Source: a virus
Lineage: Duplodnaviria; Heunggongvirae; Uroviricota; Caudoviricetes
Strand: one strand, 5' to 3'
DNA: 26,851 nucleotides
IMG/VR virus record: IMGVR_UViG_2802429248_000006
Span: 1-26,851 of that record
Below, piece by piece: positions 1-26,851 of this stretch. The notes below the pieces were generated by a model. It ran no database searches. It saw nothing but the letters and a program-made list of their open reading frames with translations, and was not told the origin of the DNA. The translations under genes were made by a program, and so were the position numbers. Numbering within the stretch: the first letter of the stretch is position 1; every line of letters starts with the position of its first letter.

Positions 1-12
1 GGTTTGGGAGAA
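1..12. other. Half of a gix/cix/hix-type invertase crossover site (GGTTTGGGAGAA), truncated by the window edge
   Basis: Positions 1-12 are the exact reverse complement of TTCTCCCAAACC at 1878-1889; core dinucleotide and other half-site would lie at positions <=0. Confidence 0.55.
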
Positions 13-480
13 GGCTCTGCATTACCTGTTGGTGTGCCTGTTCCATGGCCTTCAGCCACACCGCCAACAGGCTGGCTGAAATGCAACGGTGCGGCATTTT
101 CTGCTGAAGAATACCCGGAACTGGCAAAGGCTTATCCAACAAATAAATTACCTGATTTACGCGGTGAGTTTATTCGTGGCTGGGATGACGGGCGCGGTAT
201 TGATGCAGGACGTGTTTTATTGAGTATTCAGGCCGGAATGCTGGAAAAGCACCGTCATTTTGTTGTAGCTAACGATGGGCATGATTCAAAAGAGGAATGG
301 GAGCTGGCAACAATCTTCCGAAATACATATACACAGGGCAAGGGGCTGGATGCTACCAGTGCAGGCGGAACTCTGATTCCATCACCGAAACTTCATTCAC
401 GAGGGAGTATTGGTAATACTGGCGGGAGTGAAACCCGTCCACGAAATATTGCATTTAACTTTATCGTGAGGGCTGCATAA
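4..480 (+). CDS. Alternative tail-fibre C-terminal (variable) segment, H'/Sv'-like; no own start, open to window edge
   Basis: Translation carries the P2 H / Mu S-type receptor-binding C-terminus (PVGVPVPWP...GWLKCNG...YPELAKAYP) and ends NIAFNFIVRAA; reading frame runs in from the crossover half-site at position 1. Confidence 0.7.
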   Translation: MGEGSALPVGVPVPWPSATPPTGWLKCNGAAFSAEEYPELAKAYPTNKLPDLRGEFIRGWDDGRGIDAGRVLLSIQAGMLEKHRHFVVANDGHDSKEEWELATIFRNTYTQGKGLDATSAGGTLIPSPKLHSRGSIGNTGGSETRPRNIAFNFIVRAA

Positions 481-1082
481 TGGATAATGCCGTATTAAAT
501 AGCGAGCTTATTACCACGAAGCCGGGGAATATTACCGTCTATAACTATGATGGTGAGACGCGGGAATATATTTCTGCATCAACTGAATATCTTGCAGTGG
601 GTGTCGGTATTCCAGCATATTCCTGTTTAGACGCTCCTGGTACATCTAAGGCTGGTTATACAATTTACCGTTCTGTGGATTTAAAATCATGGGAATATGT
701 GTCAGACCATCGCGGTGAAATCGTCTATAACACCGAAACGGGAGATGCCAAAGAAATCACAGCACTAGGCGACTATCCCGAAAATACAACCACTATCGCC
801 CCGTTAACGCCATACGATAAATGGGATGGTGAAAAATGGGTGACAGATACTGAGGCACAACACGGTGCCGCAGTAGACGCGGCAGAAGCACAGCGCCAGT
901 CACTGATTGATGCAGCAATGGCTTCCATCAGTCTGATTCAACTGAAATTGCAGGCCGGACGTAAACTGACGCAGGCAGAAACAACCAGACTTAACGCTGT
1001 GCTGGATTACATTGACGCGGTGACGGCAACAGATACCAGCACCGCGCCGGATGTCATCTGGCCTGAACTGCCGGAGGCGTAG
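480..1082 (+). CDS. Tail fibre assembly protein (alternative copy, G'/U'-like)
   Basis: 200-aa ORF whose ATG overlaps the H' stop (TAATG); C-terminus TSTAPDVIWPELPEA parallels the C-terminus of the minus-strand assembly gene. Confidence 0.8.
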   Translation: MDNAVLNSELITTKPGNITVYNYDGETREYISASTEYLAVGVGIPAYSCLDAPGTSKAGYTIYRSVDLKSWEYVSDHRGEIVYNTETGDAKEITALGDYPENTTTIAPLTPYDKWDGEKWVTDTEAQHGAAVDAAEAQRQSLIDAAMASISLIQLKLQAGRKLTQAETTRLNAVLDYIDAVTATDTSTAPDVIWPELPEA

Positions 1083-1506
1083 GCCATTCAATATCTGGTG
1101 CACTGGAGGTATCAACCAGCTCCAGTACATCCAGATAATCCAGCCACAAATTATATTGCGCCAGTTCGTCACCGTTCAGACGACCAATAGCGGCTTTACC
1201 AGGCCATTGCTTACTGTTCATGTATTCGTTGGCCTGGTTAATTAGTAGCTGTCTTTCTGATTCAGTAATTTCAATAAGCTCTTCATGCGTGGGTGGAGGA
1301 ATATCTGCCCACGCAGGCAGCCCATCATCTCCGGCAATACGGATTTTTCCTTGTGGCGGTTCAGCCATAAACTCACTGATAATATTTTGATTCACCTCCT
1401 TTGCATCTGATAAATCCCATCCCTCTGATTTATATTTATCAATCATATCCACAGGGAAAAAAGCATTATGCCTTGCGCTATAAACATATTCGTTCATATA
1501 AATCAC
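1054..1506 (-). CDS. G: Tail fibre assembly protein (currently expressed copy)
   Basis: 150-aa ORF directly downstream of H on the minus strand; GTG start; 3' end overlaps the convergent G' gene by 29 bp. Confidence 0.8.
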   Translation of the reverse strand: MIYMNEYVYSARHNAFFPVDMIDKYKSEGWDLSDAKEVNQNIISEFMAEPPQGKIRIAGDDGLPAWADIPPPTHEELIEITESERQLLINQANEYMNSKQWPGKAAIGRLNGDELAQYNLWLDYLDVLELVDTSSAPDIEWPTPPAVQAR

Positions 1507-1517
1507 CCTGAATAAAA

Positions 1518-2939
1518 TTACTCACCAACAGCCCACCAACTGTAATTCATCGATACTGTGGAACTGGTTGATGCAGTTCTGTAAGCAGAATTAAAACCGG
1601 TTAATGTTGGGCCTTCTGCGGTCATCACGAATCCCCGCCCAGCACCTAAAGGCGCACCACCATCACCAGAATGAGTAAGCATGGCGCAGTCCACTTTTTT
1701 AGGAAAAGGGATGCTGAATGTAATTCTCATTGTTTGCGTCGATAATGTCGGCGTAACCGCACCACGACCATATTGCAGGATTTTCCCGTTGGGTAATTTC
1801 ATCCATCCATCACCACTGGCAAAAGAGGCCATGTCCGGTATCTGATTTTCCCCTGTCCCTACATCCCGTTTTGCCGCTTCTCCCAAACCAAGGTATGCGA
1901 GAAGACCAGCAACATCCTTTCCACTCAAATTAGTCAGCGTATTGTCCAGCGGTTGTTTACCTGCCAGTGCATTAAGCATTGTCGTGGCAAAGTTCGGGTC
2001 ATTCCCCAGCGCCGCCGCCAGTTCGTTCAGTGTATCCAGTGCCGCAGGTGCAGAACCCACCATTGTCGCAATCGCCGATTTCACAAAAGCCGTAGTGGCA
2101 ATCTGTGTATTGTTGACCGACTGCGCCGCCGTGGGGGCTGTTGGCGTTCCGGTGAGTGCCGGACTCGACAGCGGCGCTTTCAGTGCCAGCGCATTGTTAA
2201 TGGTGGTACTGAATTTCGGATCATTGTTAATGGCTACGGCTATTTCTTTCAGCGTGTCCAGCGTGGCTGGCGCACCATTAATAAGAGCCGTCAATGCCTC
2301 CTGAACAAACGCGGTGGTCGCAACCTGCGTGGTGTTATTCCCCGCCGCTGGCGTTGGCGCTTTGGGTGTCCCGGTAAACGTAGGACTTTCTTTCTGTGCA
2401 TACTGTGAATGCGGGTCCGGTGCGGCAAGATGTTTTGCCATCTGATCATCCGCGTACACCTTCAGCTCCAGTACCTTATCATCCACATACTTGCGGGTTG
2501 CCAGCACTACGGCAGGGTCGATTTTCAGGGTGATATTGTCCGTGCTGCTGGTAATCAACACCATACGCACGGTCTGGGTACGCCCGCTGCCTTCAGCCAG
2601 TTGCGGCTTATAGCTTTCCGGGCAGTTGCCCACGGCAATCAATGCCCCGGACTCATCAAACAGGCCCACTTCACGTATCCACCAACCACCCTCGTTTTCA
2701 GGGATCACCTGTTCAGCAATAATCTGGCTGCTGTTCTGCGGGTCGATATAGAGCATATTCAGCGCAGCCCGACGTTTCTCATTTACCAGTGCTGTCTGCT
2801 TTGCATCCGGCGTTGGTAATGTTCCGCCGCCATCGCCGACCGCCATATGGGTAATTTTTAAAGGCACACCGAGCGCGGCGGCGCTGGCAAGTTTCGCCGC
2901 GCCAATATCCGTCAGCAGGGTATAAAATTTTGTGCTCAT
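1518..2939 (-). CDS. H: Tail fibre protein H (constant N-terminal part plus currently joined variable C-terminus)
   Basis: 473-aa ORF with P2 H-like N-terminus (MSTKFYTLLTDIGAAKLA...) and internal duplicated ~60-aa modules; ATG overlaps the gpI stop (ATGA). Confidence 0.9.
   Translation of the reverse strand: MSTKFYTLLTDIGAAKLASAAALGVPLKITHMAVGDGGGTLPTPDAKQTALVNEKRRAALNMLYIDPQNSSQIIAEQVIPENEGGWWIREVGLFDESGALIAVGNCPESYKPQLAEGSGRTQTVRMVLITSSTDNITLKIDPAVVLATRKYVDDKVLELKVYADDQMAKHLAAPDPHSQYAQKESPTFTGTPKAPTPAAGNNTTQVATTAFVQEALTALINGAPATLDTLKEIAVAINNDPKFSTTINNALALKAPLSSPALTGTPTAPTAAQSVNNTQIATTAFVKSAIATMVGSAPAALDTLNELAAALGNDPNFATTMLNALAGKQPLDNTLTNLSGKDVAGLLAYLGLGEAAKRDVGTGENQIPDMASFASGDGWMKLPNGKILQYGRGAVTPTLSTQTMRITFSIPFPKKVDCAMLTHSGDGGAPLGAGRGFVMTAEGPTLTGFNSAYRTASTSSTVSMNYSWWAVGE
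1878..1903. other. gix/cix/hix-type 26-bp invertase crossover site inside H (constant/variable junction)
   Basis: TTCTCCCAAACC-AA-GGTATGCGAGAA: perfect left half, imperfect right half; encodes YLGLGE in H; its partner half-site is at positions 1-12. Confidence 0.6.
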
Positions 2940-3541
2940 GGATTCACTCTCATTGTGTCAATAATATGGACCGCCCCGCCTTCATGCGCGGTGCCGCCGG
3001 AAATAATTGTTTCGTTGATATACGGATAGATCGTGATTTCTTCGCCAAGATAGCTGGCGGCTCCCACCCAATGCGGGCCGCTGGTCTGCAGGTTGATGGA
3101 CATGCCGATCATGTGACGACTACATGGTTTGGCATCGCTTATCAGTCGCTCAAGTTCCAGATGGGTATCTTCAGTGATGCCCTGGTCCTGCACGCCGATA
3201 TCCAGGCGAAACGTGCCCGGTGTCTCTCCGGTCTGCCACCACTCAATAATGCGGATCAGAAAGCCGAACGGCTCCACCACCCGCCGCACGGCACTGGTGG
3301 TCCCTTTATGCTGATGAATATAAAAAGCATCCTTCACCACCTGGCGCTTGACGCTTTCTGTCCAGCCCTCGTCCCAGCGATCCACAGAGAACGCCCAGGC
3401 GAGATAAGGCAGGAAACTGACCGGACAGGTTGCCGGATTCCACAAGTCACGCAGTGACACCTGCAGATCAGAAATCCCGCTGCAGGTTTGCGCCAGTCGG
3501 CGCTCCAGTGGCGTTGAACCCGGTGGCAGCAGACTATTCAT
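2936..3541 (-). CDS. I: Baseplate assembly protein I
   Basis: 201-aa ORF in the P2 position between J and H; stop overlaps the H start. Confidence 0.85.
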   Translation of the reverse strand: MNSLLPPGSTPLERRLAQTCSGISDLQVSLRDLWNPATCPVSFLPYLAWAFSVDRWDEGWTESVKRQVVKDAFYIHQHKGTTSAVRRVVEPFGFLIRIIEWWQTGETPGTFRLDIGVQDQGITEDTHLELERLISDAKPCSRHMIGMSINLQTSGPHWVGAASYLGEEITIYPYINETIISGGTAHEGGAVHIIDTMRVNP

Positions 3542-4442
3542 CCGTTCCCCCGTTGGTCACGCTCCACTGCATACATGATGCCGCCTGCGTTTTGTTCAGG
3601 ACCACGTCCGCCTGCGGGGAAGCCAGTTCCACACGCTGAACACCCTCAACATGCAGCGCGGCAAAAATGGCGCTACGGCGAATATCCCGACCAAGCCGCG
3701 TCTGACTGGCAATGTACCTCTGCAGGCTGGCTTTTGCCGCTGCCATTACCGGCTCTGCTTCCGGTCCCGGATAGAGAAAAATGGTGGCTTCCACGCGGTA
3801 CGGGATGATTTCCGCGCTGCGAACCGTCAGACGGTCAGCCACCGGGCGGACATTCTCACTGTTCAGTGCTTTCTCCACCACATCCAGCAGGTTTTTTTCT
3901 GCTGTTCCGTCGCCTTCGCGGCTAAGGACTGTCAGCACCACCTCTGCAGGTGCCGGACTGGTTGCACTGGCATCCGCCACCCGACCGTCGGCGCTTCGGG
4001 CATGAAATTCATAAGCGGCAGTTGGTCCCGCAACTGAAAGCCCCTCAAAGGCTGCTGGCACACGCAGGCGTAACGCTTCATCGCTTTCCATCACTGCTGC
4101 AACGGGCGGCACAGCGTCATTATCAGCAGGCGTCACCGTCAGGCGTTTCACGTTGTAGTTGGCAGCGATCTGGTCAAGATCGCCGCCCATCGCGTAAGCC
4201 ACCATCACAGCCTGCGCGGCTTCGTTAATGCGCTGGCGCAGAAGCAACTCACGGTAAGCGTTCTCCTGCAGCAATTTGGTGACGGGTTCAGATTCCAGTT
4301 CCAGCGTGCGGATCACTGCTTCCTGCTCATCTTTCGGATGAAGCGCAACAAATTCGGCCTTGCGTTCGGCAAGCAGCGTCTCAAAGTCCGGCACATCCAC
4401 AATCTGCGGCGCAGGCAACTGCGAAAGGTCAATCACTGCCAT
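3534..4442 (-). CDS. J: Baseplate assembly protein J
   Basis: ORF 3534..4481; start refined to the ATG (cat at 4440-4442) giving MAVIDLSQL...; P2 J-like length (~302 aa) and position. Confidence 0.9.
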   Translation of the reverse strand: MAVIDLSQLPAPQIVDVPDFETLLAERKAEFVALHPKDEQEAVIRTLELESEPVTKLLQENAYRELLLRQRINEAAQAVMVAYAMGGDLDQIAANYNVKRLTVTPADNDAVPPVAAVMESDEALRLRVPAAFEGLSVAGPTAAYEFHARSADGRVADASATSPAPAEVVLTVLSREGDGTAEKNLLDVVEKALNSENVRPVADRLTVRSAEIIPYRVEATIFLYPGPEAEPVMAAAKASLQRYIASQTRLGRDIRRSAIFAALHVEGVQRVELASPQADVVLNKTQAASCMQWSVTNGGTDE

Positions 4443-4788
4443 TCTCTGCTCCTGTTGATACGGAAAGGGAAACAGGCACACCGTTATTACGCCGCCCGCT
4501 CAGCGCCACCACCATTGAACCGTCAAAATTGCTGTTGATGGTGATGGAATCCAGCGTCAGCCGTGGCTCCCAGCGACTCAGCGCCACATACACTGCCGAC
4601 ATGATCTGCAGGCGTAATGCCGGATTTTGTGGCTGGTCTATCAGTGTCGACAGCAGGGAACCATATTCACGACGGGCAATGCGGCTACCCTGCGGTGTCA
4701 GTAGAATGTCCCGCACCGACTGACGCAGATGGTCAATATCAGTAATGACTTTGCCGCTGGTATTGTTCATCCCACTATAAAGCGTCAT
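4429..4788 (-). CDS. W: Baseplate protein W (gp25-like)
   Basis: 119-aa ORF between V and J, overlapping both; matches P2 W size and position. Confidence 0.85.
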   Translation of the reverse strand: MTLYSGMNNTSGKVITDIDHLRQSVRDILLTPQGSRIARREYGSLLSTLIDQPQNPALRLQIMSAVYVALSRWEPRLTLDSITINSNFDGSMVVALSGRRNNGVPVSLSVSTGAENGSD

Positions 4789-5363
4789 ACCGGGCCTCCG
4801 GTTGTATCGCCGCCTTTCAGGACGCCAGTATGCTGATGCGCATCAACCACGATCCCGTTAGAACTCATCGCTCCGCCGCCCTGGGTAACGCCACCATTGA
4901 TCACCACTTCGCTGTTAATGCGCGTGCGGTCAACCTCCAGTACAAACTCACTGGTTTTCATGGTGATGTTGTCAGCGGCCTCAATGACCATTGATTTGAT
5001 GCCCCTGACATACCAGCGCCCGGTGGCGGGTTCGTATTCAAACCAGCCACCGTCAGGATGTTCTGTCACGCAGGCGTCCGCCGACGTCGACGGTGGCGCG
5101 AACTGATTCGAATAGATGGCGGGCAGCGCAAAGGCGGTTTCCAGATTGCCGCCCAGACTCAGCAGCACCACCTGCTCACCTTCCGATGGTCGCCACCATG
5201 TGCGGGCATTCCCGGCACGCAGCGTCAGCCAGCTGATCCAGTTGGTTTCAAGCTCGCCCGTTTTCACCCTGCAAAGCCAGTTTTCCCTGTCCACTTCGGT
5301 GACTACCCCAGTGCGGATTAGGTTGGTGATAAGGCGCATGATTTCGGTTAATTGTGCGTTCAT
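4785..5363 (-). CDS. V: Baseplate spike protein V
   Basis: 192-aa ORF, first gene of the V-W-J-I-H-G operon; P2 V-like. Confidence 0.85.
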   Translation of the reverse strand: MNAQLTEIMRLITNLIRTGVVTEVDRENWLCRVKTGELETNWISWLTLRAGNARTWWRPSEGEQVVLLSLGGNLETAFALPAIYSNQFAPPSTSADACVTEHPDGGWFEYEPATGRWYVRGIKSMVIEAADNITMKTSEFVLEVDRTRINSEVVINGGVTQGGGAMSSNGIVVDAHQHTGVLKGGDTTGGPV

Positions 5364-5409
5364 AGGGAAAGGTTGCCATCAGGGGAAGAAAGGCGGCAGT
5401 GCTGCAACT

Positions 5410-5427
5410 TGTATCAGTGCTGATACA
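5410..5427 (-). promoter_or_regulatory. TGT-N12-ACA dyad, candidate Ogr/B-type late-activator binding site for the V operon promoter
   Basis: TGTATCAGTGCTGATACA sits in the 68-bp S-V intergenic gap; P2-family late promoters carry a TGT-N12-ACA activator site. Confidence 0.45.
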
Positions 5428-5431
5428 AAGA

Positions 5432-5878
5432 TCACCCCGCCAGCCATTGCAGAATCATGTCGCGGGTCATTGCCTCAACATCATCATTTACACCCAGCAG
5501 GCGGCGCTCTGCGTAACGGACCTCCGGTCCTTTGCGACTGACGCGATCACGCAGGCCGTAATGGTGAACACGGGCAATACGCTGCACCTTGCCTTCAAAC
5601 TGTACGCTGGCAGAGTCGGCGCTGGCGGCAGTTTTCAGGTATTTTGTGGTGCGCAGCTTTGCAAACATCTGACGTTTGATGCGGCCTTTTTTGCTGCGTG
5701 CTGTTACCCTGCGCGGTTCATAACTGCGGCCATCTGGATTGCGCTGCATCCTGATATTCTGCTGCTGTGTCCGGCGCAGTTCCTGCGCCAGCTGGCGCAT
5801 CATGCGGCTTCTCGTGGCTGGTTCCAGATTCGCCAGCAAGGCACTCAGCCAGCCGTCCACCTTCTGCAGTTCAGCCAC
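5432..5878 (-). CDS. S: Tail completion protein S
   Basis: 148-aa ORF in P2 S position; size matches (P2 S ~150 aa). Confidence 0.85.
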   Translation of the reverse strand: MAELQKVDGWLSALLANLEPATRSRMMRQLAQELRRTQQQNIRMQRNPDGRSYEPRRVTARSKKGRIKRQMFAKLRTTKYLKTAASADSASVQFEGKVQRIARVHHYGLRDRVSRKGPEVRYAERRLLGVNDDVEAMTRDMILQWLAG

Positions 5879-6323
5879 GTTTCACCGTCCACATTTCTTC
5901 AGGTTCATCGGGTTCTGCTACAGCTTCAACGCTCGACACACTGCCGTCAGTACTGACCAGCACACGTTCCGTCAGTTGCAGGTTAAGGCTGATATCACAG
6001 ACATCGTTGCGCAAAATATCCACCTCAAAGGTGAATAGCTTTTCCCGTAACGCCGGGTTATTGATGGCATCGGGCTGGTTATCCCGAAGCCACAGTAAAA
6101 CCGGGGCCATCAGCAGATTCTGGTCGCCGCTGAAATCCTCTATCACCACGTTCAGGGTATAGCGGTACTCCCATGACATGGAGCTGGCCCCCGTGGCAAC
6201 CAGCGAACCGTTATCCACAAACAGATGCAGTTTGTCCGGGTTATTGCGGACATAAGGCACCGCTTTATTGAGGGCGTGGCGCAGGGATTGTGGTTTGTTC
6301 ACTGTTTCGCTCCTGACACGCAA
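5871..6323 (-). CDS. R: Tail completion protein R
   Basis: 150-aa ORF in P2 R position, overlapping the S start. Confidence 0.8.
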   Translation of the reverse strand: MRVRSETVNKPQSLRHALNKAVPYVRNNPDKLHLFVDNGSLVATGASSMSWEYRYTLNVVIEDFSGDQNLLMAPVLLWLRDNQPDAINNPALREKLFTFEVDILRNDVCDISLNLQLTERVLVSTDGSVSSVEAVAEPDEPEEMWTVKRG

Positions 6324-6555
6324 TAATCATGTCCACTTTGTCTGCACAGACCGTCCAGGCGGCCTCCGTTTCATCCAGCAACGCGTTCAGGTCACCGTTA
6401 GTGCGCGGCGCTGCCTGCCCCAGCCGACACGGCGTCACTCGCGGACAACCACTGACGGTAAGCTGCACCTCCGGTGAGTGCCGGACGTTCCCGCAGCCGG
6501 ATAATGTCAGCAGGCAAAGGAGTATCAGCCCAGCGGCGTAAATCCTCGTTCTCAC
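6265..6555 (-). CDS. lysC: Outer-membrane lipoprotein spanin (LysC / Rz1-like), overlapping lysB out of frame
   Basis: 96-aa ORF with N-terminal signal peptide and lipobox (LLTLSGC); overlaps the 3' part of lysB in another frame. Confidence 0.65.
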   Translation of the reverse strand: MRTRIYAAGLILLCLLTLSGCGNVRHSPEVQLTVSGCPRVTPCRLGQAAPRTNGDLNALLDETEAAWTVCADKVDMIIACQERNSEQTTIPAPRPQ

Positions 6556-11381: not shown

Positions 11382-13148
11382 ATGAACACCACACTGACAC
11401 CCGCAGATCTCGATCCCCGTCGGCAGGCCATGCTGCTGTACTTTCAGGGATACCGCGTCGCCCGCATTGCTGAAATGCTGGGCGAGAAAGTTGCAACCGT
11501 TCACAGCTGGAAAAAACGCGACAAGTGGGGTGACTATGGGCCGCTGGATCAGATGCAGCTCACCACCGCCGCACGCTACTGCCAGCTCATTATGAAGGAG
11601 CACAAAGAAGGGAAAGATTTCAAAGAGATTGACCTGCTGGCGCGCCAGTCGGAGCGCCACGCGCGGATCGGCAAGTTTAACAATGGCGGCAACGAAGCCG
11701 ACTTAAACCCTAACGTCGCCAACCGCAACAAAGGCCCACGCCGTCAGCCTGAAAAGAATGTTTTCACCGATGAACAGATTGAGAAGCTGGAAGAAATTTT
11801 CCATTCCTCCATGTTCAACTACCAGCGCCACTGGTGGGAAGCCGGAAAAACCAACCGCATCCGCAACCTGCTGAAGTCACGCCAGATCGGCGCGACCTTC
11901 TATTTTGCCCGTGAAGCCCTGATTGACGCTCTGCTGACCGGACGTAACCAGATTTTCCTTTCCGCAAGCAAGGCACAGGCCCACGTCTTTAAGCAGTACA
12001 TCATCGACTTCGCCAAAGAAGTGGAGGTGGAGCTGAAAGGCGATCCGATGGTGCTTCCTAACGGGGCCACGCTTTACTTCCTCGGCACCAATGCCCGCAC
12101 GGCCCAGAGTTATCACGGCAACCTGTATCTGGATGAATATTTCTGGATACCAAAATTCCAGGAGCTGCGCAAAGTGGCTTCCGGTATGGCTATTCACAAG
12201 AAATGGCGGCAGACCTATTTTTCCACGCCATCCAGCCTGACACACAGTGCTTATCCGTTCTGGTCCGGTGCGCTGTTCAACCGTGGGCGCAACAAAGCCG
12301 ACAAGGTGGACATCGACCTGTCCCACAGCAATCTGGCCCCCGGCCTGCTGTGCGCAGACGGGCAATACCGCCAGATAGTCACCGTGGAGGATGCGGTGCG
12401 CGGCGGCTGTAACCTGTTCGATCTCGACCAGTTGCGCATGGAGTACAGCCCGGACGAATACCAGAACCTGCTGATGTGTGAGTTCGTGGATGATCTCGCG
12501 TCCGTGTTCCCGCTCAGCGAGCTGCAGGCATGCATGGTGGACAGCTGGGAAGTCTGGACCGACTTTCATGCACTGGCCCTGCGCCCATTTGGCTGGCGCG
12601 AAGTGTGGATCGGTTATGACCCGGCTAAAGGTACGCAGAACGGCGACAGCGCCGGATGCGTGGTGGTGGCACCGCCAGCCGTGCCAGGCGGTAAGTTTCG
12701 CATTCTTGAGCGTCACCAGTGGCGCGGGATGGACTTCCGCGCCCAGGCTGACGCCATCAAAAAACTGACCGAACAGTACAACGTGACCTATATCGGTATC
12801 GACTCGACCGGCGTTGGTCACGGGGTTTATGAGAACGTGAAAGCGTTCTTTCCTGCCGTCCGGGAGTTTGTCTACAACCCCACCGTTAAAAACGCCCTGG
12901 TACTCAAGGCCTACGACATTATCAGCCACCGCCGCCTGGAGTTTGACGCCGGACACACCGACATAGCGCAGTCCTTTATGGCAATCCGTCGCGCCACCAC
13001 CGCCAGTGGCAACCGCCCGACCTATGAAGCCAGCCGCAGCGAAGAAGCCAGTCACGCCGATCTGGCCTGGGCAACGATGCATGCACTGTTTAATGAACCG
13101 CTGCAGGGCGAGTCCGCCAATACCAGCAATATTGTGGAGATTTTTTGA
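11382..13148 (+). CDS. P: Terminase large (ATPase) subunit P
   Basis: 588-aa ORF, divergent from O; P2 P-like size and position. Confidence 0.9.
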   Translation: MNTTLTPADLDPRRQAMLLYFQGYRVARIAEMLGEKVATVHSWKKRDKWGDYGPLDQMQLTTAARYCQLIMKEHKEGKDFKEIDLLARQSERHARIGKFNNGGNEADLNPNVANRNKGPRRQPEKNVFTDEQIEKLEEIFHSSMFNYQRHWWEAGKTNRIRNLLKSRQIGATFYFAREALIDALLTGRNQIFLSASKAQAHVFKQYIIDFAKEVEVELKGDPMVLPNGATLYFLGTNARTAQSYHGNLYLDEYFWIPKFQELRKVASGMAIHKKWRQTYFSTPSSLTHSAYPFWSGALFNRGRNKADKVDIDLSHSNLAPGLLCADGQYRQIVTVEDAVRGGCNLFDLDQLRMEYSPDEYQNLLMCEFVDDLASVFPLSELQACMVDSWEVWTDFHALALRPFGWREVWIGYDPAKGTQNGDSAGCVVVAPPAVPGGKFRILERHQWRGMDFRAQADAIKKLTEQYNVTYIGIDSTGVGHGVYENVKAFFPAVREFVYNPTVKNALVLKAYDIISHRRLEFDAGHTDIAQSFMAIRRATTASGNRPTYEASRSEEASHADLAWATMHALFNEPLQGESANTSNIVEIF

Positions 13149-14176
13149 TGGGAAAGAGTAAGAAAAACCGCACTGCGGCGACGAATCAGATCCAGCATAA
13201 AAACCAAACTTCAGCCGAAGCATTCAGCTTCGGCGATCCCGTTCCTGTTCTGGACCGCCGAGAATTACTGGACTATGTGGAATGCGTACAGATGGACCGT
13301 TGGTATGAGCCGCCCGTCAGCTTTGACGGACTGGCGCGCACCTTCCGCGCTGCCGTGCATCACAGTTCCCCGATTGCAGTAAAGTGCAACATTCTGACCA
13401 GTACCTATATCCCTCATCCTCTGCTCAGCCAGCAGGCTTTTTCGCGTTTTGTGCAGGACTATCTGGTATTTGGCAACGCCTATCTGGAGAAACGCACGAA
13501 CCGCTTCGGTGAAGTGATCGCCCTTGAACCTGCGCTGGCAAAATACACCCGACGCGGATTAGACCTGGATACCTACTGGTTTGTGCAATACGGTATGACA
13601 ACCCAGCCGTATCAGTTCACGAAAGGCAGTATTTTTCATCTGATGGAACCGGACATCAACCAGGAGATCTACGGCCTGCCCGGTTATCTTTCTGCCATTC
13701 CGTCAGCCCTGCTCAACGAGTCCGCCACGTTGTTCCGCCGTAAGTATTACATCAACGGCAGCCATGCAGGCTTCATCATGTACATGACCGATGCCGCGCA
13801 GAATCAGGAGGACGTGAACAACCTCCGCAACGCGATGAAAAGCGCCAAAGGACCGGGTAACTTCCGCAACCTGTTTATGTACTCGCCTAACGGCAAAAAG
13901 GACGGGCTTCAGATTATCCCGTTGTCAGAGGTCGCGGCGAAGGATGAGTTTCTGAATATCAAAAATGTCAGCCGCGATGACATGATGGCTGCGCACCGCG
14001 TGCCGCCGCAAATGATGGGGATTATGCCTAATAATGTTGGGGGGTTTGGGGATGCGGAGAAAGCTAGCCGGGTATTTGTTCGCAACGAATTAATTCCTCT
14101 CCAGAAGAGACTGCAGGAACTGAATGAATGGCTAGATGATGAAGTCATAACCTTTAAAAGGTATAGTCTCGATTAA
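13145..14176 (+). CDS. Q: Portal protein Q
   Basis: 343-aa ORF overlapping the P stop; P2 Q-like; the final ~50 codons drop in GC. Confidence 0.9.
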   Translation: MMGKSKKNRTAATNQIQHKNQTSAEAFSFGDPVPVLDRRELLDYVECVQMDRWYEPPVSFDGLARTFRAAVHHSSPIAVKCNILTSTYIPHPLLSQQAFSRFVQDYLVFGNAYLEKRTNRFGEVIALEPALAKYTRRGLDLDTYWFVQYGMTTQPYQFTKGSIFHLMEPDINQEIYGLPGYLSAIPSALLNESATLFRRKYYINGSHAGFIMYMTDAAQNQEDVNNLRNAMKSAKGPGNFRNLFMYSPNGKKDGLQIIPLSEVAAKDEFLNIKNVSRDDMMAAHRVPPQMMGIMPNNVGGFGDAEKASRVFVRNELIPLQKRLQELNEWLDDEVITFKRYSLD

Positions 14177-16243: not shown

Positions 16244-18685
16244 TTAATACAGGTTCCGCCACTTATCATCTTCCCGCAAACGCTGGTTCCGATAGAAGAT
16301 ACGCAAGCCTGCTCCTGACGGAATACTGCCGCCGCGAAGGAGTAAATCGACCTCTTTCTCGCTACCATCAAATCCTCTGGACTTCAGCTCATAGACGAGC
16401 TGCTGTCGCTGATGATCTGTAATTCGCTGTTTGTAGTCTTTACGCCGTTTCGGTTTCACCAGGCGTAACCTTGCTGCCAGTTCCCGGCGCTCTTTTTTGC
16501 TCATACTGTGCAGATAATCGTGCAACTCCTTGTCATCCATGCGGGTAATATCCGTTCTGGTGTCCCCATCAGCTGATTTATCTTTCTCCTGTTGGTTCAA
16601 ATTTTCAGCAAGGGGACAGTTATTGCCACGAGTCCAAGGGGCGCAAGCGCCCTGGTCGGCTGCCGCCTCCTGAACGTCAACGGCCTTACGAACCATTTTC
16701 CACTTCACGGCATGAGTGCAGATCTTGCCCTCTGCAATGGGTGACCAGATGCCATAAATACGAATGCCGTGATCGCCATAGGCGGTCGGCTCTTCGTTAA
16801 TTTCATAAGCGGTTCTGATGAGGTGATATTTGCGGGGAACCAGTACGCCGCCCTGCTTCATGATGTAGGTGGCAAAACAACCAGCATCAGCAGCAGCCAG
16901 GATGGCATCAAGGCGCGGGTTATCCAGTACCGGCGCACCTGCTTTTTTGTCGCCCTGTTGCCTTGCCGCCTGACCAGCCAGCAATCGCAGTTCACGGTAA
17001 GCCTGACGCCCCGGAATGCCAAAGAAGCGGAATTGCTGAACACGATGCAGAGACGCCCAGGCATTAACGTATTCAGCGTTATCACGCAGGGATTTACCCG
17101 TTTCCTTGCTGATCTCGCCAGCCAGACCACGCCCGTCAATGTTCTTACTGATGTATTTCGCGATGTAGCTTGTTGGCGTACCTTTGCGCGGGTTTATCAG
17201 CTCAGACTTAAAGCGTGGTCCCGTGTTATTACCCAGCTCCTCGCGGTCTTCACGAATGGCAAACTTACGCAACAAAGCAGTAATGGCGCGGCGATCTTTT
17301 TTGCGCATAAAACACAACAGGTGCCAGTGAACTGTACCGTCATGATGCGGCTCAGCCACCCGCACGCCATACCAGCGCAATCCGGCTTTGTGCATCGCCT
17401 TACGAAATGCAGCAAACATGCCGACCAGATAATCACTGCTTTGTCTTACCGTCGCATTTGTCCAGGTCGGGTTGGGCCTGCCGTTATTTAGCGTGGAATG
17501 GAAACGTGACGGACAGGTGATGGTGTAGAAAACGGCGCAGTCACTGCGCATTTCCGCGATAAGCTCCAGACCTTTAACACAGGCCATCATCTCATTGCGG
17601 CGATGCGCCGGGTTGCTGCTGCTGGCGTTTACCACATCTTCCATATCCAGCGTGTCGCCGTTTTCGTTCACCAGTTCATGAGAACGGAAAAACTCCAGCG
17701 ACTTACGGCGCTGCTCACGTTTATGCATCACGGCTTCATAGCTGACATAGGGAGATGCTTTTTTGCTGACCAGGCAGACAGCACGCAACTGCTCTTCCCG
17801 CCATTCGCAGCGCATCTTCCATAATTTCCGATACCACCAGTCGGCACACAACATACGCGCCAGCGAACCCGGAATGAGTTCATAGGGCACGGGTTTGCGA
17901 CGCTTTCTTTTCCGACGAAGTTGCTCAAACGCAGGCGGGATAACATCCAGTCGCAGGGTTTCCGCTGCCACCTTTTCCCATGTCTTGCGGATTTCTTCTG
18001 GCTTAACATCATCGGTGGCGTACAAATCACCACAAGCGGCATCAAGGCACATGCTCATATGCGCAGCTACCAGGGTGGACAGGCGTTTCACCTGATCCTG
18101 ACTCATTTCAGGCAGGATCAGCAGGCCGTCCAGCCCTTCATGGCTCGCCATAAAGCGAAAAGAAGTGGATAGCTGACTGTCGCGTACATGCTCCAGCCGT
18201 TCCAGACATGGCTTAATCGTCTCACGCAAATAGCGGGAATAAGCCTTTGGCCTGCCCAGGCTGCTGAAGTATTCAATACGTTGCATCAGCGGCTTGCTGA
18301 TATGGGAAGGCTGGGCGTTAACGTCCGCCAGAATGACCATGTCCGGATTAAAACGCTGCTGCTCATGCGCCAGCTTTGCCCGGCTAATGAGCTTATCCTG
18401 CTCCATTTCGCGTTGGACAGGATCACGGGATTCATTAAAGAAATAACGCTCCCAGACCTGATCACTCAGTGCCTCGCGGCGCACTTGTTCCTGCTCGTTA
18501 TCGGCAGCGTACAGAGTGATCAGGTTTGAAAGCGCAGAAACCGGCGCAACTTCCGCCGGGTCCAGATAAGGGTTAATGGCTTTCTTAGGTAAATTCCACG
18601 AATAACCCCCGGCAGAATTCTCAATGCTACCGGAAGTTACACTGACAAATGGATCGGCAAGACGGCCTGTGCTGATCTCTGTCAC
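16244..18685 (-). CDS. A: Replication initiation protein A (rolling-circle HUH endonuclease)
   Basis: 813-aa ORF with P2 A-type motifs ([25 protein letters not shown]); GTG start overlaps the upstream stop (GTGA). Confidence 0.9.
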
Positions 18686-19692
18686 TCACAGACTCCTGCA
18701 TATACACTGCTGCACACCGCTTTATCATTCATGCCTGCCAGCAGGTCAAACTGCATACCGCCCCGAGTCGTTAAGGCCCAGTCCCGATAAGTTTCAATGC
18801 CATAAGCATCAACAGTTATGACTTCGATCCGTTTTTCATCACGGCGCGGATCATGCGTGGATGGAAAGAACGTTGAATTGCCACGTCTTGAACATTCCGC
18901 AACCAGTCTTTCCCACTCAGCCACTCGGCGGATTTCTTCTGGCCAGCGTTGGAAAATCTCAGCAAGTTCTGACTTGCGAGCATGAATACATGGCATACAA
19001 CCGACACGACTGCATCCCTGCATATAAAGGGGGTTAGGCTTAATGCCATGACGTTTGGCAATAGCAAACACATCCTCATGCAGCCAATTAAGGATCGGAC
19101 GATAAACATGCAGGCCCAGAGTATTGTCTGCATCGTCCTCCCACTCAGGCAACAATGCACGTTCCGGTGATTCCTGCCCCCGGACTCCTTGCCAGCTGAT
19201 TACCTCATCGTATTCATCCAGAGCCGGATCGATTACCTGTGTACGTATTGGTTCATGTTTCAGTTCAAAAGTGCAGAAACGAGCTTTTGTTGAAGGGAAG
19301 CGACCTTTCCACATGCACAAATCAAGAAACGGAACGCCGGTTGGTTTAAGGATTTCCAGTGCCCGGTAAATACGTTCCTCAGCCTCATCTGTCGACATAC
19401 CACATTCCTCAACGAGAGAAATGGGCCACTTTTCCGCAATGAATTTACGTTTCCCTTCTATCTGGCGTGTGAAATCCGCTTTGACGCGAATAATCTTGCC
19501 CAGCTTTGATTCCAGATAATCCAGATATTCTATTGTCTGTGGATGTTCATGACCCGTATCGGCAAATACAGAAATATGCGGAACATCGTTTTCAATGGCT
19601 CTTAACCATTGAGCGAGACTATCTTTGCCACCAGAAGTAGTGATGATGTTAATGGTGCTTGAGGCAAAGCAACGCGGATCGATAGCATTCAT
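18682..19692 (-). CDS. PAPS-reductase / DndC-like PP-loop ATP pyrophosphatase family protein
   Basis: 336-aa ORF with PP-loop motif (TSGGKDS) and a C-terminal cysteine cluster (CSRVGCMPC); ATG overlaps the Dam stop (ATGA). Confidence 0.75.
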
Positions 19693-20537
19693 GCGCGTAC
19701 CTCAACGGTACGGTCAGAGCCGCTGGCAAAATCGACACCAAACCACCCAGCTGATTTGGTGGCAATGATTTCTGTTGCAGATTTACTCTCGCCAGCTGAC
19801 ACGCCAATGCTGCGTTTTGACTTGATGTAGTGGTGAGTGAAATTGCGATACAGCGAACGGATCAGGGATGTGTCACTGTTAGAAACAATGACCGGATGAC
19901 CTTCAGATGATCGATGTTCAAGAACGGATGCCAGGTGATACTGGTCATCTTCAGTGAAGCCATCAGTGTGATAGCCGGAAAACGTACCGTCATAAGGCGG
20001 ATCGCAATACACCACATCCCCCACCTTCAACATCGCCAGCGTTTCATCAAAGCTGGCGCAGATAAACGTTGCCTGCTGGGCTTTCTCTGCAAATGCGCGA
20101 ATTTCTTTTTCAGGGAAATACGGATTTTTATAATTACCGTAGGGAATGTTGAAATACCCGCTCTTGTTATAGCGACATAACCCACGGTAACCATGACGAT
20201 TGAGATACAGAAAATATACCGCTTTTATGAAATCAGTAATTTCAGTGGAGTAATTAAACTCCTGCCTTATGTTGTAATAAGCCACCTCCCTGTTTGCTTC
20301 CTCAAATAAAGCTCTGGCACGAGATATAAACGCCTCACAATCAGCAGCAACCTTTTTATAGAGGTTGATTAAATCAGGATTAATATCCGCAACAAGATAG
20401 CTGGGGTAATCCGTCTCCATCATCACTGCACAGGAACCCGCGAAAGGTTCAACCAGTCGCGGGCCAGCAGGAAGATGCTTTTTCAGTTCGGACATTATGG
20501 CGGTTTTATTTCCCGCCCATTTCAGGATAGTGCTCAT
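19689..20537 (-). CDS. dam: DNA N6-adenine methyltransferase (Dam-like)
   Basis: ORF 19689..20597 trimmed to the ATG ([11 protein letters not shown]) behind a GGAGGTG Shine-Dalgarno; motif I (FAGSCAV) and motif IV (DPPY). Confidence 0.85.
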
Positions 20538-20761
20538 ACAGCACCTCCGTTGTAATGTTTGCCTTTCAGCTCTGCGATTTCCTGACAGGTAATGCAAAGC
20601 TGCACACCCGGAATGGCACGACGGCGTGCTGGCGGAATTGGCGCTTCACACTCAATGCAAAGCACACGAGACACGCCCGGTGTTTTGGCACGGGCAGCAC
20701 GAATATGGCGCTGGCGTTCTTCTTCAACGCGCTGCTGTACGAGATCCATTGCATCAGCCAT
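20534..20761 (-). CDS. TraR/DksA-type C4 zinc-finger protein
   Basis: 75-aa ORF with CxxC...CxxC (CIECE...CITCQ); stop overlaps the Dam start (ATGA). Confidence 0.7.
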   Translation of the reverse strand: MADAMDLVQQRVEEERQRHIRAARAKTPGVSRVLCIECEAPIPPARRRAIPGVQLCITCQEIAELKGKHYNGGAV

Positions 20762-22122: not shown

Positions 22123-22632
22123 TCACAGCAAACCAAATGAAGCACCGAGGCCAGTCACGGTATCAACTGCACTCGCCATCGCAGGGTTAGCCTGTAAACG
22201 GGCCTGCAATGAAACAGCAGCCAACGCCATCAGTCGTGTTATAGAGTTAATGCTGCTGATAGCATCACGACGGCCTGCACTGGTTTTTACATCGCCAGAT
22301 ACCGCGCCTGCAGCTACACGCCCGATCTCTGCTGTTGCACTCATGACGTAATGCGGCAGTTTCTCTTTTGCCACCTCATTAATCGGAACACATGGCAGGC
22401 AGTGAATCTGTGCCAGAAAACCATCTACCAGTGTTGAGTCTTCTGTCAGATCAGTAAGCAACCAAATTTCTGGTGCGGTTAATAAATGAGGTTGAGCTGG
22501 ATTCAGCTTGTTCCGCAGAATCTGCACATTCATACCTGCACGTTCTGCCAGTTGCACCAAGTTGTGGCGCAATGCAAATGCACGACAGGCTTCATCAAAA
22601 TGTGGATGTTTGGAAACTTGGTAATCAAACAT
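22123..22632 (-). CDS. cII: 186 CII-like transcriptional regulator
   Basis: ORF trimmed to [19 protein letters not shown]...; N-terminal HTH-like segment ([16 protein letters not shown]); second gene of the rightward early operon as in 186. Confidence 0.65.
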
Positions 22633-22664
22633 AGTCGACACTCCTGATGCATCCCAAAATGGAA

Positions 22665-22886
22665 CTAGTTGAATACAACATTGCAATCAGTAAGTGCATC
22701 AACGGTAAGAGCAGCAAGGTTGATCATTACCTTTTCTCTTTTCTTGTCTTTCCGAAGTCGATGGCGAGGGATACGACCATCAGCCAGCATATCGTTGATG
22801 GTGTCGATAGAAAGACCAGTAAGTTCGCTATAACGCTCAATTGTGACGTGTGGCGTATTCAGAGTTATTGAAATGTTAGGGGTCAT
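22665..22886 (-). CDS. apl: Apl/Cox-like excisionase-repressor
   Basis: 73-aa HTH protein ([24 protein letters not shown]), first gene of the early operon, divergent from cI. Confidence 0.65.
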
Positions 22887-22973: not shown

Positions 22974-23912
22974 ATGTCAACTCAAAAAATCACATTTCGC
23001 CATATTGAAGATAGTCTGAAAGCTATGGTCATGCAGAATCGTGGAGGGCAAAAAGTCATTGAGAGGATACTCAAGGCCTATGGTTTCAAATCACGCCAAG
23101 CCTTCTGTAAGCATCTTGGTATTTCACAAAGCACAATGGCTAATAGATATGCACGCGATACCTTCCCTGCTGATTGGGTTGTTATATGTTCAATGGAAAC
23201 TGGCGCATCCCTAGAATGGCTGGCCTTTGGTTCTAACAATGCAGAAGAAAGTTTCCCCCCTTATGTGGAACAACATGATGAAACAGTCCCACATGAGGGG
23301 TTTAACAGCAACGCTCATCAATCATCCTTTAAGCGCCGCATTGAGAATCACATTGAGCTTACTAACGGAGGAAAAGCCGCGATAGAGAGGATTGTTAATG
23401 CTTACGGGTTTAAAACCCGCCAAGCCTTAGCCGACCACCTTGGTATTTCAAAAAGCACATTAGCCACACGATACATGCGAGATTCTTTCCCTGCGGATTG
23501 GGTGATTAAATGCGCATTAGAAACCAAAGCGGATCTCGCCTGGCTAGTTACAGGAATCGAAACACCAAATAGTTCACAAGAAGAAAACACTGTAATTTTA
23601 AATAAGTTCAATTTAGTCAATGGCGTGCTTGTCGAGTCAGGTTTTTTATCCATGGATCGGTGTCTACTTCCGAAGCAAGAAACTAGCAGCTTGATGTTTG
23701 TAAGCAATGGAGAAAAACATGTCATATGTGATAAAGAATTTCACCTAATTAGAGATGGAAAATGGTTAGTAGGAATTGACAATGAGTTATCTTTAAAAGA
23801 GTTAACTCGTTTACCTAAGAACAAAATTCTTGTTTCTGGTGGGAGTAAGGATTTTGAGTGTTCCATTGAGGATATTCAAATTATAGCCAGCATTATCTTA
23901 ACAATACAATAA
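22974..23912 (+). CDS. cI: CI-like immunity repressor with two tandem N-terminal HTH domains
   Basis: 312-aa ORF; residues ~27-95 and ~130-200 are clear paralogous copies (ERILKAYGFKSRQAF...FPADWVVICSMETGASLEWL vs ERIVNAYGFKTRQAL...FPADWVIKCALETKADLAWL), resembling the 186 CI N-terminal domain as I recall it. Confidence 0.7.
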   Translation: MSTQKITFRHIEDSLKAMVMQNRGGQKVIERILKAYGFKSRQAFCKHLGISQSTMANRYARDTFPADWVVICSMETGASLEWLAFGSNNAEESFPPYVEQHDETVPHEGFNSNAHQSSFKRRIENHIELTNGGKAAIERIVNAYGFKTRQALADHLGISKSTLATRYMRDSFPADWVIKCALETKADLAWLVTGIETPNSSQEENTVILNKFNLVNGVLVESGFLSMDRCLLPKQETSSLMFVSNGEKHVICDKEFHLIRDGKWLVGIDNELSLKELTRLPKNKILVSGGSKDFECSIEDIQIIASIILTIQ

Positions 23913-25798: not shown

Positions 25799-26851
25799 AT
25801 GGCAGTACGAAAACTCACCACAGGAAAATGGCTTTGCGAATGTTACCCCGCCGGACGTAGTGGGCGTCGGGTGCGTAAACAATTCGCCACCAAAGGCGAA
25901 GCTCTGGCTTTTGAGCGCCACACGATGGAAGAAACCGAAGCAAAGCCCTGGCTGGGTGAATCAGTGGATCGTCGAACACTGAAAGACGTGGTTGAGCTAT
26001 GGTTCAAACTACATGGTAAATCTCTGACAGCTGGGCAGCATGTCTATGACAAATTGCTGTTGATGGTTGACGCTCTGGGCAATCCTCTTGCAACCGATCT
26101 CACCTCTAAAATGTTTGCCCACTATCGAGATAAACGCCTGACAGGCGAGATCTACTTCAGCGAGAAATGGAAGAAAGGAGCAAGCCCGGTCACCATTAAC
26201 CTGGAGCAAAGCTATCTAAGTAGTGTTTTTAGCGAACTATCCCGTCTGGGCGAATGGTCGTATCCGAACCCACTGGAGAACATGCGAAAATTCACCATCG
26301 CAGAAAAAGAGATGGCATGGCTTACCCATGAGCAGATTGTTGAATTGCTGGCTGATTGCAAACGTCAGGACCCAATTCTGGCACTGGTAGTTAAGATATG
26401 CTTAAGCACAGGCGCACGCTGGCGTGAAGCCGTAAATCTTACCCGCTCACAGGTGACCAAATACCGAATTACCTTTGTCAGAACGAAGGGGAAGAAAAAC
26501 AGAAGCATCCCTATCAGTAAAGAGCTTTACGAAGAGATCATGGCGCTTGATGGGTTCAATTTCTTTACAGACTGCTATTTTCAATTTTTATCCGTGATGG
26601 AAAAAACGTCTATCGTGCTCCCTCGCGGTCAACTCACACACGTTCTGCGCCATACGTTTGCGGCGCACTTCATGATGTCGGGTGGAAACATTCTCGCCTT
26701 ACAAAAAATTCTCGGACACCACGATATAAAAATGACTATGCGTTACGCACATCTGGCACCAGATCATCTGGAAACGGCGCTCCGTTTCAATCCTCTGGCA
26801 ACGCTGCCAAGTGGCGACAAAGTGGCGGCAGCGGTTGGCATTACCCCGTAA
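25799..26851 (+). CDS. int: Tyrosine integrase (P2/186 Int family)
   Basis: 350-aa ORF; N-terminus parallels P2 Int (MAVRKLTTGKW...RRVRKQFATKGEALAFERHT); C-terminal catalytic region (HVLRHTFAAHF...LGHHDIKMTMRYAHL); stop is the last codon of the window. Confidence 0.95.
   Translation: MAVRKLTTGKWLCECYPAGRSGRRVRKQFATKGEALAFERHTMEETEAKPWLGESVDRRTLKDVVELWFKLHGKSLTAGQHVYDKLLLMVDALGNPLATDLTSKMFAHYRDKRLTGEIYFSEKWKKGASPVTINLEQSYLSSVFSELSRLGEWSYPNPLENMRKFTIAEKEMAWLTHEQIVELLADCKRQDPILALVVKICLSTGARWREAVNLTRSQVTKYRITFVRTKGKKNRSIPISKELYEEIMALDGFNFFTDCYFQFLSVMEKTSIVLPRGQLTHVLRHTFAAHFMMSGGNILALQKILGHHDIKMTMRYAHLAPDHLETALRFNPLATLPSGDKVAAAVGITP

Follow-up and report, generated by a model that had tools for sequence, protein, structure and literature searches.

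A probable invertible tail-fibre segment, related to the P segment of e14, in a P2-like prophage of Escherichia coli

Genes of the segment and of the surrounding prophage

The window, i.e., the whole stretch of 26,851 nucleotides analysed here (IMG/VR record IMGVR_UViG_2802429248_000006), opens with a segment of tail-fibre genes flanked by two inverted repeats (Table 1). The largest gene is H (1518-2939, minus strand), which encodes a protein of 473 amino acids (aa). Residues 1-354 of this protein, which end in LGLGE and are encoded by the constant part together with the right site, share 45% identity with H of phage P2 through the motif YLGL(Q/G)E. In the RefSeq annotation of an identical locus, this intact H gene is mis-split. 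At the other end of the segment, an open reading frame runs in frame 1 from the first base of the window to a stop codon at 480 and encodes a second tip with the C-terminus NIAFNFIVRAA. This tip carries a Pfam Collar domain (E = 1e-15), and the tip now attached to H carries a Gp53-like_C domain; by Pfam, these two folds are unrelated. The initial annotation had described the orphan reading frame as an alternative H C-terminus of P2 H type. While the orphan tip is indeed present, it is of the StfE type, with 62% identity to StfE of e14 and a first stretch of approximately 75 residues that is identical. The canonical P2 H C-terminus was also considered as a source of the tip and showed no significant similarity to it (best E = 0.39).

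Table 1. Features of the tail-fibre segment and its borders (window coordinates)
Feature	Coordinates	Strand	Remarks
Probable invertible segment	1..1889	.	reaches from one central dinucleotide to the other; centre-to-centre length about 1.89 kb
Left (invertase-proximal) crossover site, inner half	1..13	.	GGTTTGGGAGAA(G); only part inside the window
Alternative C-terminal tip of H, predicted silent	1..480	+	159 codons from GLGE to stop; Collar domain; e14 StfE-like
Tail-fibre assembly chaperone, TfaE-like, predicted silent	480..1082	+	200 aa; Pfam Caudo_TAP 1.4e-32
Tail-fibre assembly chaperone, predicted expressed	1054..1497	-	147 aa; Pfam Caudo_TAP 4.8e-31; tfaP position of e14
Variable C-terminal tip of H, predicted to be expressed now	1518..1877	-	Pfam Gp53-like_C 6.6e-12, H residues 381-472
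Right crossover site, in H	1878..1903	.	TTCTCCCAAACC-AA-GGTATGCGAGAA, 26 bp, central AA 1890-1891
Constant N-terminal part of H	1904..2939	-	Pfam Phage_tail_fib 2.8e-65

Between the two tips lie two convergent tail-fibre assembly genes, which overlap by 29 bp (1054-1082), as had been noted before; an overlap of equal length is found in e14 (3518-3546) and in E. coli PEC422. The 200-aa chaperone is the cognate of the collar tip, and window positions 430-1209, which contain its gene, show 87% DNA identity to the tfaE region of e14. All four open reading frames of the segment are intact. Consensus scans for promoters and terminators gave counts at or below shuffle expectation across the segment; internal promoters are assumed to be absent in the switch proposed below.

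The prophage around the segment was judged on the P2 genes Q, P, O, N, M, L, X, the lysis genes, R, S, V, W, J, I, H, G, FI, FII, E, T, U, D and ogr, together with gpA and an integrase. The P2 late-gene order and hallmark proteins were found in the annotation of a near-identical locus, and the Pfam domains P2_Phage_GpR, Phage_tail_S, Phage_base_V, GPW_gp25, Baseplate_J, Tail_P2_I, Phage_GPA and integrase were found in the source contig and the window. The immunity region, of the CI/CII type, is 186-like. The prophage apparently is a complete member of the P2 family (Peduoviridae).

Crossover sites and the adjacent invertase

A 26-bp crossover site within H and a perfect inverted half-site in the first 12 bases of the window had both been proposed from the sequence, and both were recovered. 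Window positions 1878-1903 read TTCTCCCAAACCAAGGTATGCGAGAA, and positions 1-12 (GGTTTGGGAGAA) are the exact reverse complement of 1878-1889, with the perfect inverted repeat extending to 13 nt (1-13 and 1877-1889). When up to one mismatch was allowed, the half-site 12-mer occurred twice in the 26.8 kb, at these two places, compared with 0.08 occurrences expected, and the only window match to a degenerate Gin/Hin-type 26-mer consensus was at 1878-1903, compared with 0.01 expected. No third crossover site, as would be found in a shufflon such as that of one P2-like prophage of enteropathogenic E. coli (EPEC), was detected in the window or in positions 11000-15000 of contig L001 of E. coli OkiPb01716.

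Of the left site, the outer half (TTTTCTTAAACG) and the central TT fall outside the window; the source contig includes the TT alone. The full left site is found in OkiPb01716, where it reads TTTTCTTAAACG-TT-GGTTTGGGAGAA (L001 11987-12012). The two 26-bp sites are inverted relative to each other and their cores match (AA in the right site and TT in the left site on the same strand). In a position-by-position alignment with the pix sites of e14, the annotated cixL and cixR sites of P1 and the gix sites of Mu, the right site aligned with P1 cixR (TTCTCTTAAACC-AA-GGTATTGGATAA) and with e14 pix (TTCTCCCAAACC-AA-CGTTTATGAAAA). The initial assignment to the gix/cix/hix type is borne out by this alignment, but the nearest relatives of the sites by sequence are the pix sites of e14. 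The exact invertase-proximal 26-mer was found, in an exact-match search only, in 3 GTDB species representatives, all of them Escherichia or Shigella.

A serine invertase gene had been predicted, along with the second full site, just to the left of the window, and both are present in E. coli OkiPb01716, which is 100% identical to the window over positions 1-6353. The invertase gene of this strain is intact, encodes 188 aa (L001 11365-11931) and lies between the segment and the sheath gene FI, with its start codon 56 nt from the left site. The protein has Pfam Resolvase (2e-53) and HTH_7 (1e-15) domains, matches the Gin structures 3UJ3 and 4M6F over its full length (E = 8e-93; 3UJ3 residues 1-184) with an intact YVRVS catalytic serine motif, and matches the Hin DNA-binding domain 1HCR (E = 6.6e-9). 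Its identity is 83.5% to PinE of e14, 77% to Cin and 73% to Gin. Because the source contig ends at the site, we infer only from this identical prophage in another strain that the source strain probably also has an invertase gene and the missing outer half-site on the left. Moreover, nucleotides 19-90 of the invertase gene show 87.5% identity to pinE and 78% to the annotated enhancer of P1 cin, and a 15-mer that fits the Fis consensus (nucleotides 71-85) is shared with cin, gin and pinE; a second Fis site was not recognisable by consensus. These similarities suggest that a Fis-dependent enhancer could lie within the first part of this gene.

The absence of the invertase from the source assembly's view, with the contig ending at the site, would also fit a segment that was formerly invertible and became frozen in the source strain through a deleted, truncated or inactive invertase, leaving the collar tip and its chaperone permanently silent. 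Across 46 evaluable loci, the invertase start was always 55-56 nt from the invertase-proximal site, and the gene was full-length in 43 and truncated in 3; the truncated ones keep only the first 35-65 invertase codons beside an intact site, so that some relatives are locked, and e14 itself is a defective prophage. By comparison, the OkiPb01716 prophage, identical over 1-6353, carries an intact invertase with all catalytic motifs, the four reading frames of the segment are undamaged, and both sites retain the consensus and matching central dinucleotides. Even a strain that had lost its own enzyme could be served in trans by another Din invertase, such as Pin of e14, whose sites have identical inner halves; Gin, Cin, Pin and Hin are established to cross-complement. 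A frozen segment is therefore considered very unlikely.

The end of the source contig may itself bear on this question. The contig in GCA_002965825.1 (PTSI01) starts TTGGTTTGGGAGAA, opening with the core TT of the left site, a hint that the reads contained both orientations; three other contigs also terminate at a crossover site of the same type. Mixed orientations account for a break precisely at the crossover more readily than a frozen segment does, and a working switch would explain where this whole-genome shotgun contig ends. However, the contig reads straight through the right site, and the argument is only suggestive because a simple assembly graph with both orientations would break at the right site too.

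Orientation of the segment and the proposed switch

Both junctions of the segment encode GLGE, as the initial annotation had pointed out: H contains ...LLAYLGLGEAAK and the window opens with GGT TTG GGA GAA. When the segment was inverted in silico, residues 1-354 of H were fused in frame to the alternative tip without a stop codon at the joint, giving an open H of 509 aa, so that the predicted in-frame fusion held. E. coli PEC422 has an annotated H of 509 aa with 95% identity to this flipped product and carries the inverted cassette together with an identical invertase protein (WP_000905033.1). The window aligns with PEC422 in two pieces on opposite strands, with the switch at 1877, and the flipped window is colinear with it. 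Among complete E. coli genomes with a contiguous junction, 30 carried the flipped and 52 the unflipped arrangement, and relative to the invertase the two orientations were found at a ratio of 12:12 in those of the fetched related loci that showed the invertase and both assembly genes. As judged by this comparison of sequences across strains, the flipped isomer occurs in nature.

A second tip and chaperone could also have been acquired through horizontal transfer or duplication, in which case the repeat would reflect shared coding of GLGE at a module boundary and no inversion would occur. Unrelated phages do exchange tail-fibre modules at the same joint, the collar tip occurs downstream of at least three different constant parts, and the canonical P2 H has a mere relic of a site at the joint, without an invertase. 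Nevertheless, we regard such a static mosaic as highly improbable, given that the repeat forms a complete 26-bp dyad matching the Din consensus, extending beyond the shared codons, that the site is invariably accompanied by an invertase gene at the fixed spacing, and that the four-gene cassette is found in both orientations beside an identical invertase and changes orientation precisely at the site.

The segment is thus very probably an invertible tail-fibre (host-range) switch of a P2/186-like E. coli prophage, of the Din class (Gin/Cin/Pin/Hin) and closest to the P segment of e14. The 188-aa serine invertase would bind the two inverted 26-bp sites, one located some 55 nt from the invertase start codon and the other at the LGLGE codons of H. 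By analogy with Gin and Hin, it would make staggered cuts at the central TT/AA and exchange strands, flipping the segment of approximately 1.89 kb with the help of a Fis-bound enhancer at the 5' end of its coding sequence. The late operon V-W-J-I-H would be the only source of transcription and would supply the constant 354 N-terminal residues of H, so that the tip and chaperone facing the constant part would be the pair expressed. This would be the gp53-like tip with the 147-aa chaperone in the present state (H of 473 aa), and the collar, StfE-like tip with the 200-aa chaperone in the flipped state (H of 509 aa). The two resulting types of virion presumably recognise different receptors, and inversion is likely to be active in the source strain.

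Since Din invertases cross-complement and e14 pix has the same inner half-sites as this element, a single invertase could serve several prophages in the same cell. It might even recombine sites between them, which could shuffle fibre tips among elements or cause large chromosomal inversions. Such wider action seems unlikely on present evidence. If it did occur, the approximately 75 residues identical to StfE, the presence of the tip behind three constant parts and the contig breaks at crossovers would be traces of exchange between prophages.

Comparison with known inversion systems

This type of DNA switch is already known and has been reported for P2-like prophages, and its mechanism is familiar from textbooks through Gin of Mu, Cin of P1 and Pin of e14. 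The value of the present assignment is therefore mainly one of annotation, as it names two alternative receptor-binding tips of the prophage; host-range prediction and phage engineering should consider both fibre variants. The G segment of Mu with Gin and the C segment of P1 with Cin belong to the same mechanism class, with a serine invertase of approximately 190 aa, 26-bp dyad sites within a tail-fibre gene, a constant N-terminus with alternative C-termini that have their own chaperones, and an enhancer at the start of the invertase gene, which is putative in the present system. Their segments are larger (3 kb in Mu and 4.2 kb in P1, compared with 1.89 kb here), the central dinucleotide of Mu is TC/GA rather than TT/AA, cin of P1 is convergent with S, unlike the arrangement found here, and the backbones are a Mu-like transposable phage and a P1 plasmid prophage rather than a P2-like prophage. 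The invertase of the H segment of Salmonella, Hin, is of the same family; Hin inverts a promoter, not coding tips, and hin sits within its own segment.

Among P2-like prophages, Fels-2 reportedly carries an invertase, Fin. Escherichia phage pro483 (Peduovirus pro483, NC_028943) has an identical architecture with the invertase in the Z/fun slot, in the order FII, FI, DNA invertase, collar tip (+), assembly gene (+), assembly gene (-), H (-), I and J. Its DNA identity is approximately 92% over window positions 1-2039, and it differs by sequence mosaicism only, with an H of 399 aa compared with 473 aa here; nothing was found on the invertase in the literature on pro483. A DNA invertase with inverted neighbouring genes has often been seen at this P2-like hotspot locus (preprint, 10.1101/2024.10.15.618418). 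In two P2-like prophages of EPEC E2348/69, inversion was detected by sequencing and, at a locus with three sites, also by PCR, with the small inversion at that locus comprising about 1.8 kb (PMC4272514).

The closest counterpart is the P segment of e14 with Pin, found in E. coli K-12 as stfP-tfaP-tfaE-stfE-pinE, which shares the gene order and strands, including an invertase that is co-directional with the constant part. Its inner half-sites are identical (GGTTTGGGAGAA), its invertase-proximal site differs by 1 nt (TTTTCATAAACG compared with TTTTCTTAAACG here), and its segment measures 1827 bp (1.83 kb) centre to centre, compared with 1.89 kb here. Unlike in e14, the constant part found here is a P2-type H, the tip predicted to be expressed is gp53-like, and the right outer half-site is GGTATGCGAGAA, which resembles cixR.

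Crossover sites and genes of the segment

The 26-bp site inside the tail-fibre gene H and the inverted half-site at the start of the window, both described in the initial annotation, were read where it had placed them. Together they form a perfect inverted repeat of 13 nt (1-13 and 1877-1889). Allowing up to one mismatch, the 12-mer half-site was found at only two places in the 26.8 kb, 1-12 and 1878-1889 (0.08 expected), and the sole match in the window to a degenerate Gin/Hin-type 26-mer consensus was the right site (0.01 expected). The full second site expected to the left was found in E. coli OkiPb01716 (complete genome NZ_AP042701.1), where the outer half and core, TTTTCTTAAACG-TT, lie directly left of window position 1. 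Read on one strand, the cores are TT at the left and AA at the right; the sites thus have matching cores and opposite orientations.

Features of the prophage and of the matching OkiPb01716 locus (L001)
Feature	Position	Strand	Remarks
Left site, inner half	1-12		GGTTTGGGAGAA; exact reverse complement of 1878-1889
Alternative tip, orphan open frame	base 1 to stop at 480	+	ends NIAFNFIVRAA; Pfam Collar
Assembly gene, 200 aa	480-1082	+	Pfam Caudo_TAP, tail-fibre assembly protein
Assembly gene, 147 aa	1054-1497	-	Pfam Caudo_TAP; 29-bp overlap with 480-1082 gene
H, 473 aa	1518-2939	-	Pfam Phage_tail_fib (N-terminus), Gp53-like_C (C-terminus)
Right site	1878-1903		TTCTCCCAAACC-AA-GGTATGCGAGAA
Portal gene	13145-14176		open 343-codon ORF
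PIN_12 domain protein, 367 aa	14215-15318	-	just beyond portal gene
gpA	16244-18685
PAPS-reductase (SspD/DndC-like) gene and Dam-type methylase	18682-20597	-
CII	22123-22686
CI-like repressor, 312-aa ORF	22974-23912	+
Old nuclease	23956-25725	+	full-length, P2 Old-type; PADLOC Old 1e-234; AAA_15 and OLD-like TOPRIM
Integrase	25799-26851
Invertase WP_000905033.1, 188 aa, "recombinase family protein"	L001 11365-11931	-	start 56 nt from left site
Complete left site, 26 bp	L001 11987-12012

The layout of orphan tip, convergent overlapping assembly genes and GLGE joints was present as originally proposed: across the right site H reads ...LLAYLGLGEAAK, and the opening codons of the window encode G-L-G-E. 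The description of the alternative tip as P2 H-type did not hold, since it matched canonical P2 H only at E = 0.39; it is 62% identical to StfE of the defective prophage e14, the first ~75 residues being identical. It is the constant part of H that is P2 H-like (45% identity through YLGL(Q/G)E). The shaft of H (window about 1990-2370) contains a ~61-aa tandem repeat with 183-nt spacing, ...NNTQ(V/I)ATTAFV...APA(T/A)LDTL(K/N)E(I/L)A...NDP(K/N)F..., a motif that P2 H has too. At L001 13518-14939, which corresponds to window 1518-2939, RefSeq/PGAP splits the intact 473-aa ORF into a pseudogene fragment ("missing C-terminus") and a second feature, "gp53-like domain-containing protein"; neither sequence interrupts the ORF.

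The invertase gene in OkiPb01716 and the prophage of the window

Window 1-6353 is identical to OkiPb01716, and near identity continues to ~13.4 kb. The serine invertase gene predicted to the left of the window is there in OkiPb01716, followed in order by FI, FII, E, T, U, D and ogr; it occupies the slot between G and FI that in canonical P2 holds Z/fun. The protein carries Resolvase and HTH_7 domains (Pfam) and an intact YVRVS catalytic serine motif, matches Mu Gin crystal structures 3UJ3 and 4M6F over residues 1-184 (E = 8e-93), and is 83.5% identical to e14 PinE, 77% to P1 Cin and 73% to Mu Gin. In all 46 evaluable loci the invertase-proximal site lies 55-56 nt from the invertase start codon, with 43 full-length and 3 truncated invertase genes. 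The IMG/VR contigs L021, L022 and L049 have an intact invertase-proximal site beside an invertase gene reduced to its first 35-65 codons, and are probably locked derivatives of the switch.

The P1 record places the Cin enhancer at cin nt 19-90. Over those nucleotides the WP_000905033.1 gene shares 78% identity with cin and 87.5% with pinE. All four invertase genes (this one, cin, gin and pinE) have a conserved 15-mer at nt 71-85 that fits the Fis consensus (G..YR..W..YR..C); a second Fis site was not recognisable by the consensus. Family membership suggests that the invertase would be Fis-dependent.

Within the P2 family the prophage is 186-like; the last codon of the window is the integrase stop codon. 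From ~13440 onward, window and OkiPb01716 diverge; the portal gene, open in the window, is annotated as frameshifted in OkiPb01716. The PIN_12 protein had no PADLOC match, and its gene lies beside the portal gene, at a known cargo hotspot of P2-like phages. Directly downstream of replication gene A are two translationally coupled genes, one for a PAPS-reductase family protein weakly similar to SspD, BrxP and DndC and one for a Dam-class N6-adenine methyltransferase; as a module, the pair may serve in DNA modification or anti-restriction. In the CI-type repressor ORF two stretches match the Phage_CI_repr HTH model, which may reflect a duplicated or fused HTH, or a start called too early. The Old nuclease gene is placed between this repressor and the integrase.

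Natural isomers and contig breaks

Inversion was judged from natural isomers in other genomes. In-silico inversion of window 1-1889 produced an uninterrupted 509-aa H, the in-frame fusion of constant part and alternative tip that had been anticipated, and E. coli PEC422 carries its counterpart: an identical invertase protein, then a gp53-like tip (+), two assembly genes (+ and -) and a 509-aa H (-) identical to the flipped H at 483/509 residues. The flipped window is colinear with PEC422, while the real window aligns as two opposite-strand pieces that switch at 1877. The flipped junction, queried as a synthetic sequence, was contiguous in 30 complete E. coli genomes and the unflipped one in 52. 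Drawn from 73 IMG/VR contigs with the window's first 40 nt and the other fetched loci, those with the invertase and both assembly genes visible were split 12:12 by orientation. Three kinds of outer half-site (invertase-proximal, prophage H and e14 StfP types) stand in front of this 40-mer, the switch always falling after TT.

The NCBI WGS contig encoding H, PTSI01000015.1 (GCA_002965825.1, 113,785 bp), starts TT-GGTTTGGGAGAA, its position 3 being window position 1, so the break in the assembly coincides with the central dinucleotide of the left site. Besides this source contig, three IMG/VR contigs break off at such a crossover site: L041 starts with TT like the source contig, its break being on the H side, and L024 and L063, the latter with a different tip, end directly at the GGTTTGGGAGAA half-site without TT. 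A 15-nt repeat alone cannot break a short-read assembly; both orientations among the reads would break a de Bruijn graph at this base. The recurrent breaks at this base hint that the sequenced cultures contained both orientations, an argument weakened because the source contig passes unbroken through the right site.

In the proposed mechanism, the late operon V-W-J-I-H (-) would transcribe the 354 codons of the constant part of H, followed by whichever tip and chaperone pair faces it. Once the invertase had cut both sites at the central dinucleotide and exchanged strands, the collar tip with its 200-aa chaperone would stand in place of the gp53-like tip with its 147-aa chaperone. The distal pair might be silent; no promoter enrichment was seen inside the segment, which is weakly consistent with this. 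The unrelated tip domains suggest that the two tips may differ in receptor specificity.

Relation to known inversion systems

Crossover sites, those of e14, P1 and Mu being read directly from sequence records
Source	Site
Prophage, left	TTTTCTTAAACG-TT-GGTTTGGGAGAA
Prophage, right	TTCTCCCAAACC-AA-GGTATGCGAGAA
e14	CTCTCGAAAACC-TT-GGTTTGGGAGAA
e14	TTCTCCCAAACC-AA-CGTTTATGAAAA
P1 cixL (annotated)	CAATCCTAAACC-TT-GGTTTAAGAGAA
P1 cixR (annotated)	TTCTCTTAAACC-AA-GGTATTGGATAA
Mu	TTATCCAAAACC-TC-GGTTTACAGGAA

The inner half-sites of e14 are identical to those of the prophage and its invertase-proximal outer half differs by 1 nt; the H-side outer half of the prophage resembles P1 cixR. The e14 gene layout (stfP-tfaP-tfaE-stfE-pinE) is also shared, with convergent assembly genes that overlap by 29 bp and an invertase co-directional with the constant part. 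Canonical P2 (NC_001895) lacks an invertase; its H has a relic site, TTATCGAATATC-TC-GGTTTACAGGAA, at nt 1124-1149 (codons YLGLQE), the joint homologous to GLGE, and the right half of this relic is identical to Mu gix. The H joint seems to mark a module boundary that is conserved across fibre genes.

The reading of this segment as an invertible tail-fibre switch is correct, and such switches are already known. Phage pro483 (Peduovirus pro483) shares this architecture and has a gene annotated as DNA invertase, and Klebsiella phage KP12 has a 99.5% identical invertase beside convergent assembly genes. Using whole-genome sequencing, Goldberg et al. 2014 found that orientations coexist in two EPEC P2-like prophages, and confirmed by PCR the variants of the three-site locus, which includes a ~1.8 kb inversion (PMC4272514). 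A DNA invertase with inverted neighbours has also been reported as frequent in the P2 Z/fun hotspot in a 2024 preprint (10.1101/2024.10.15.618418).
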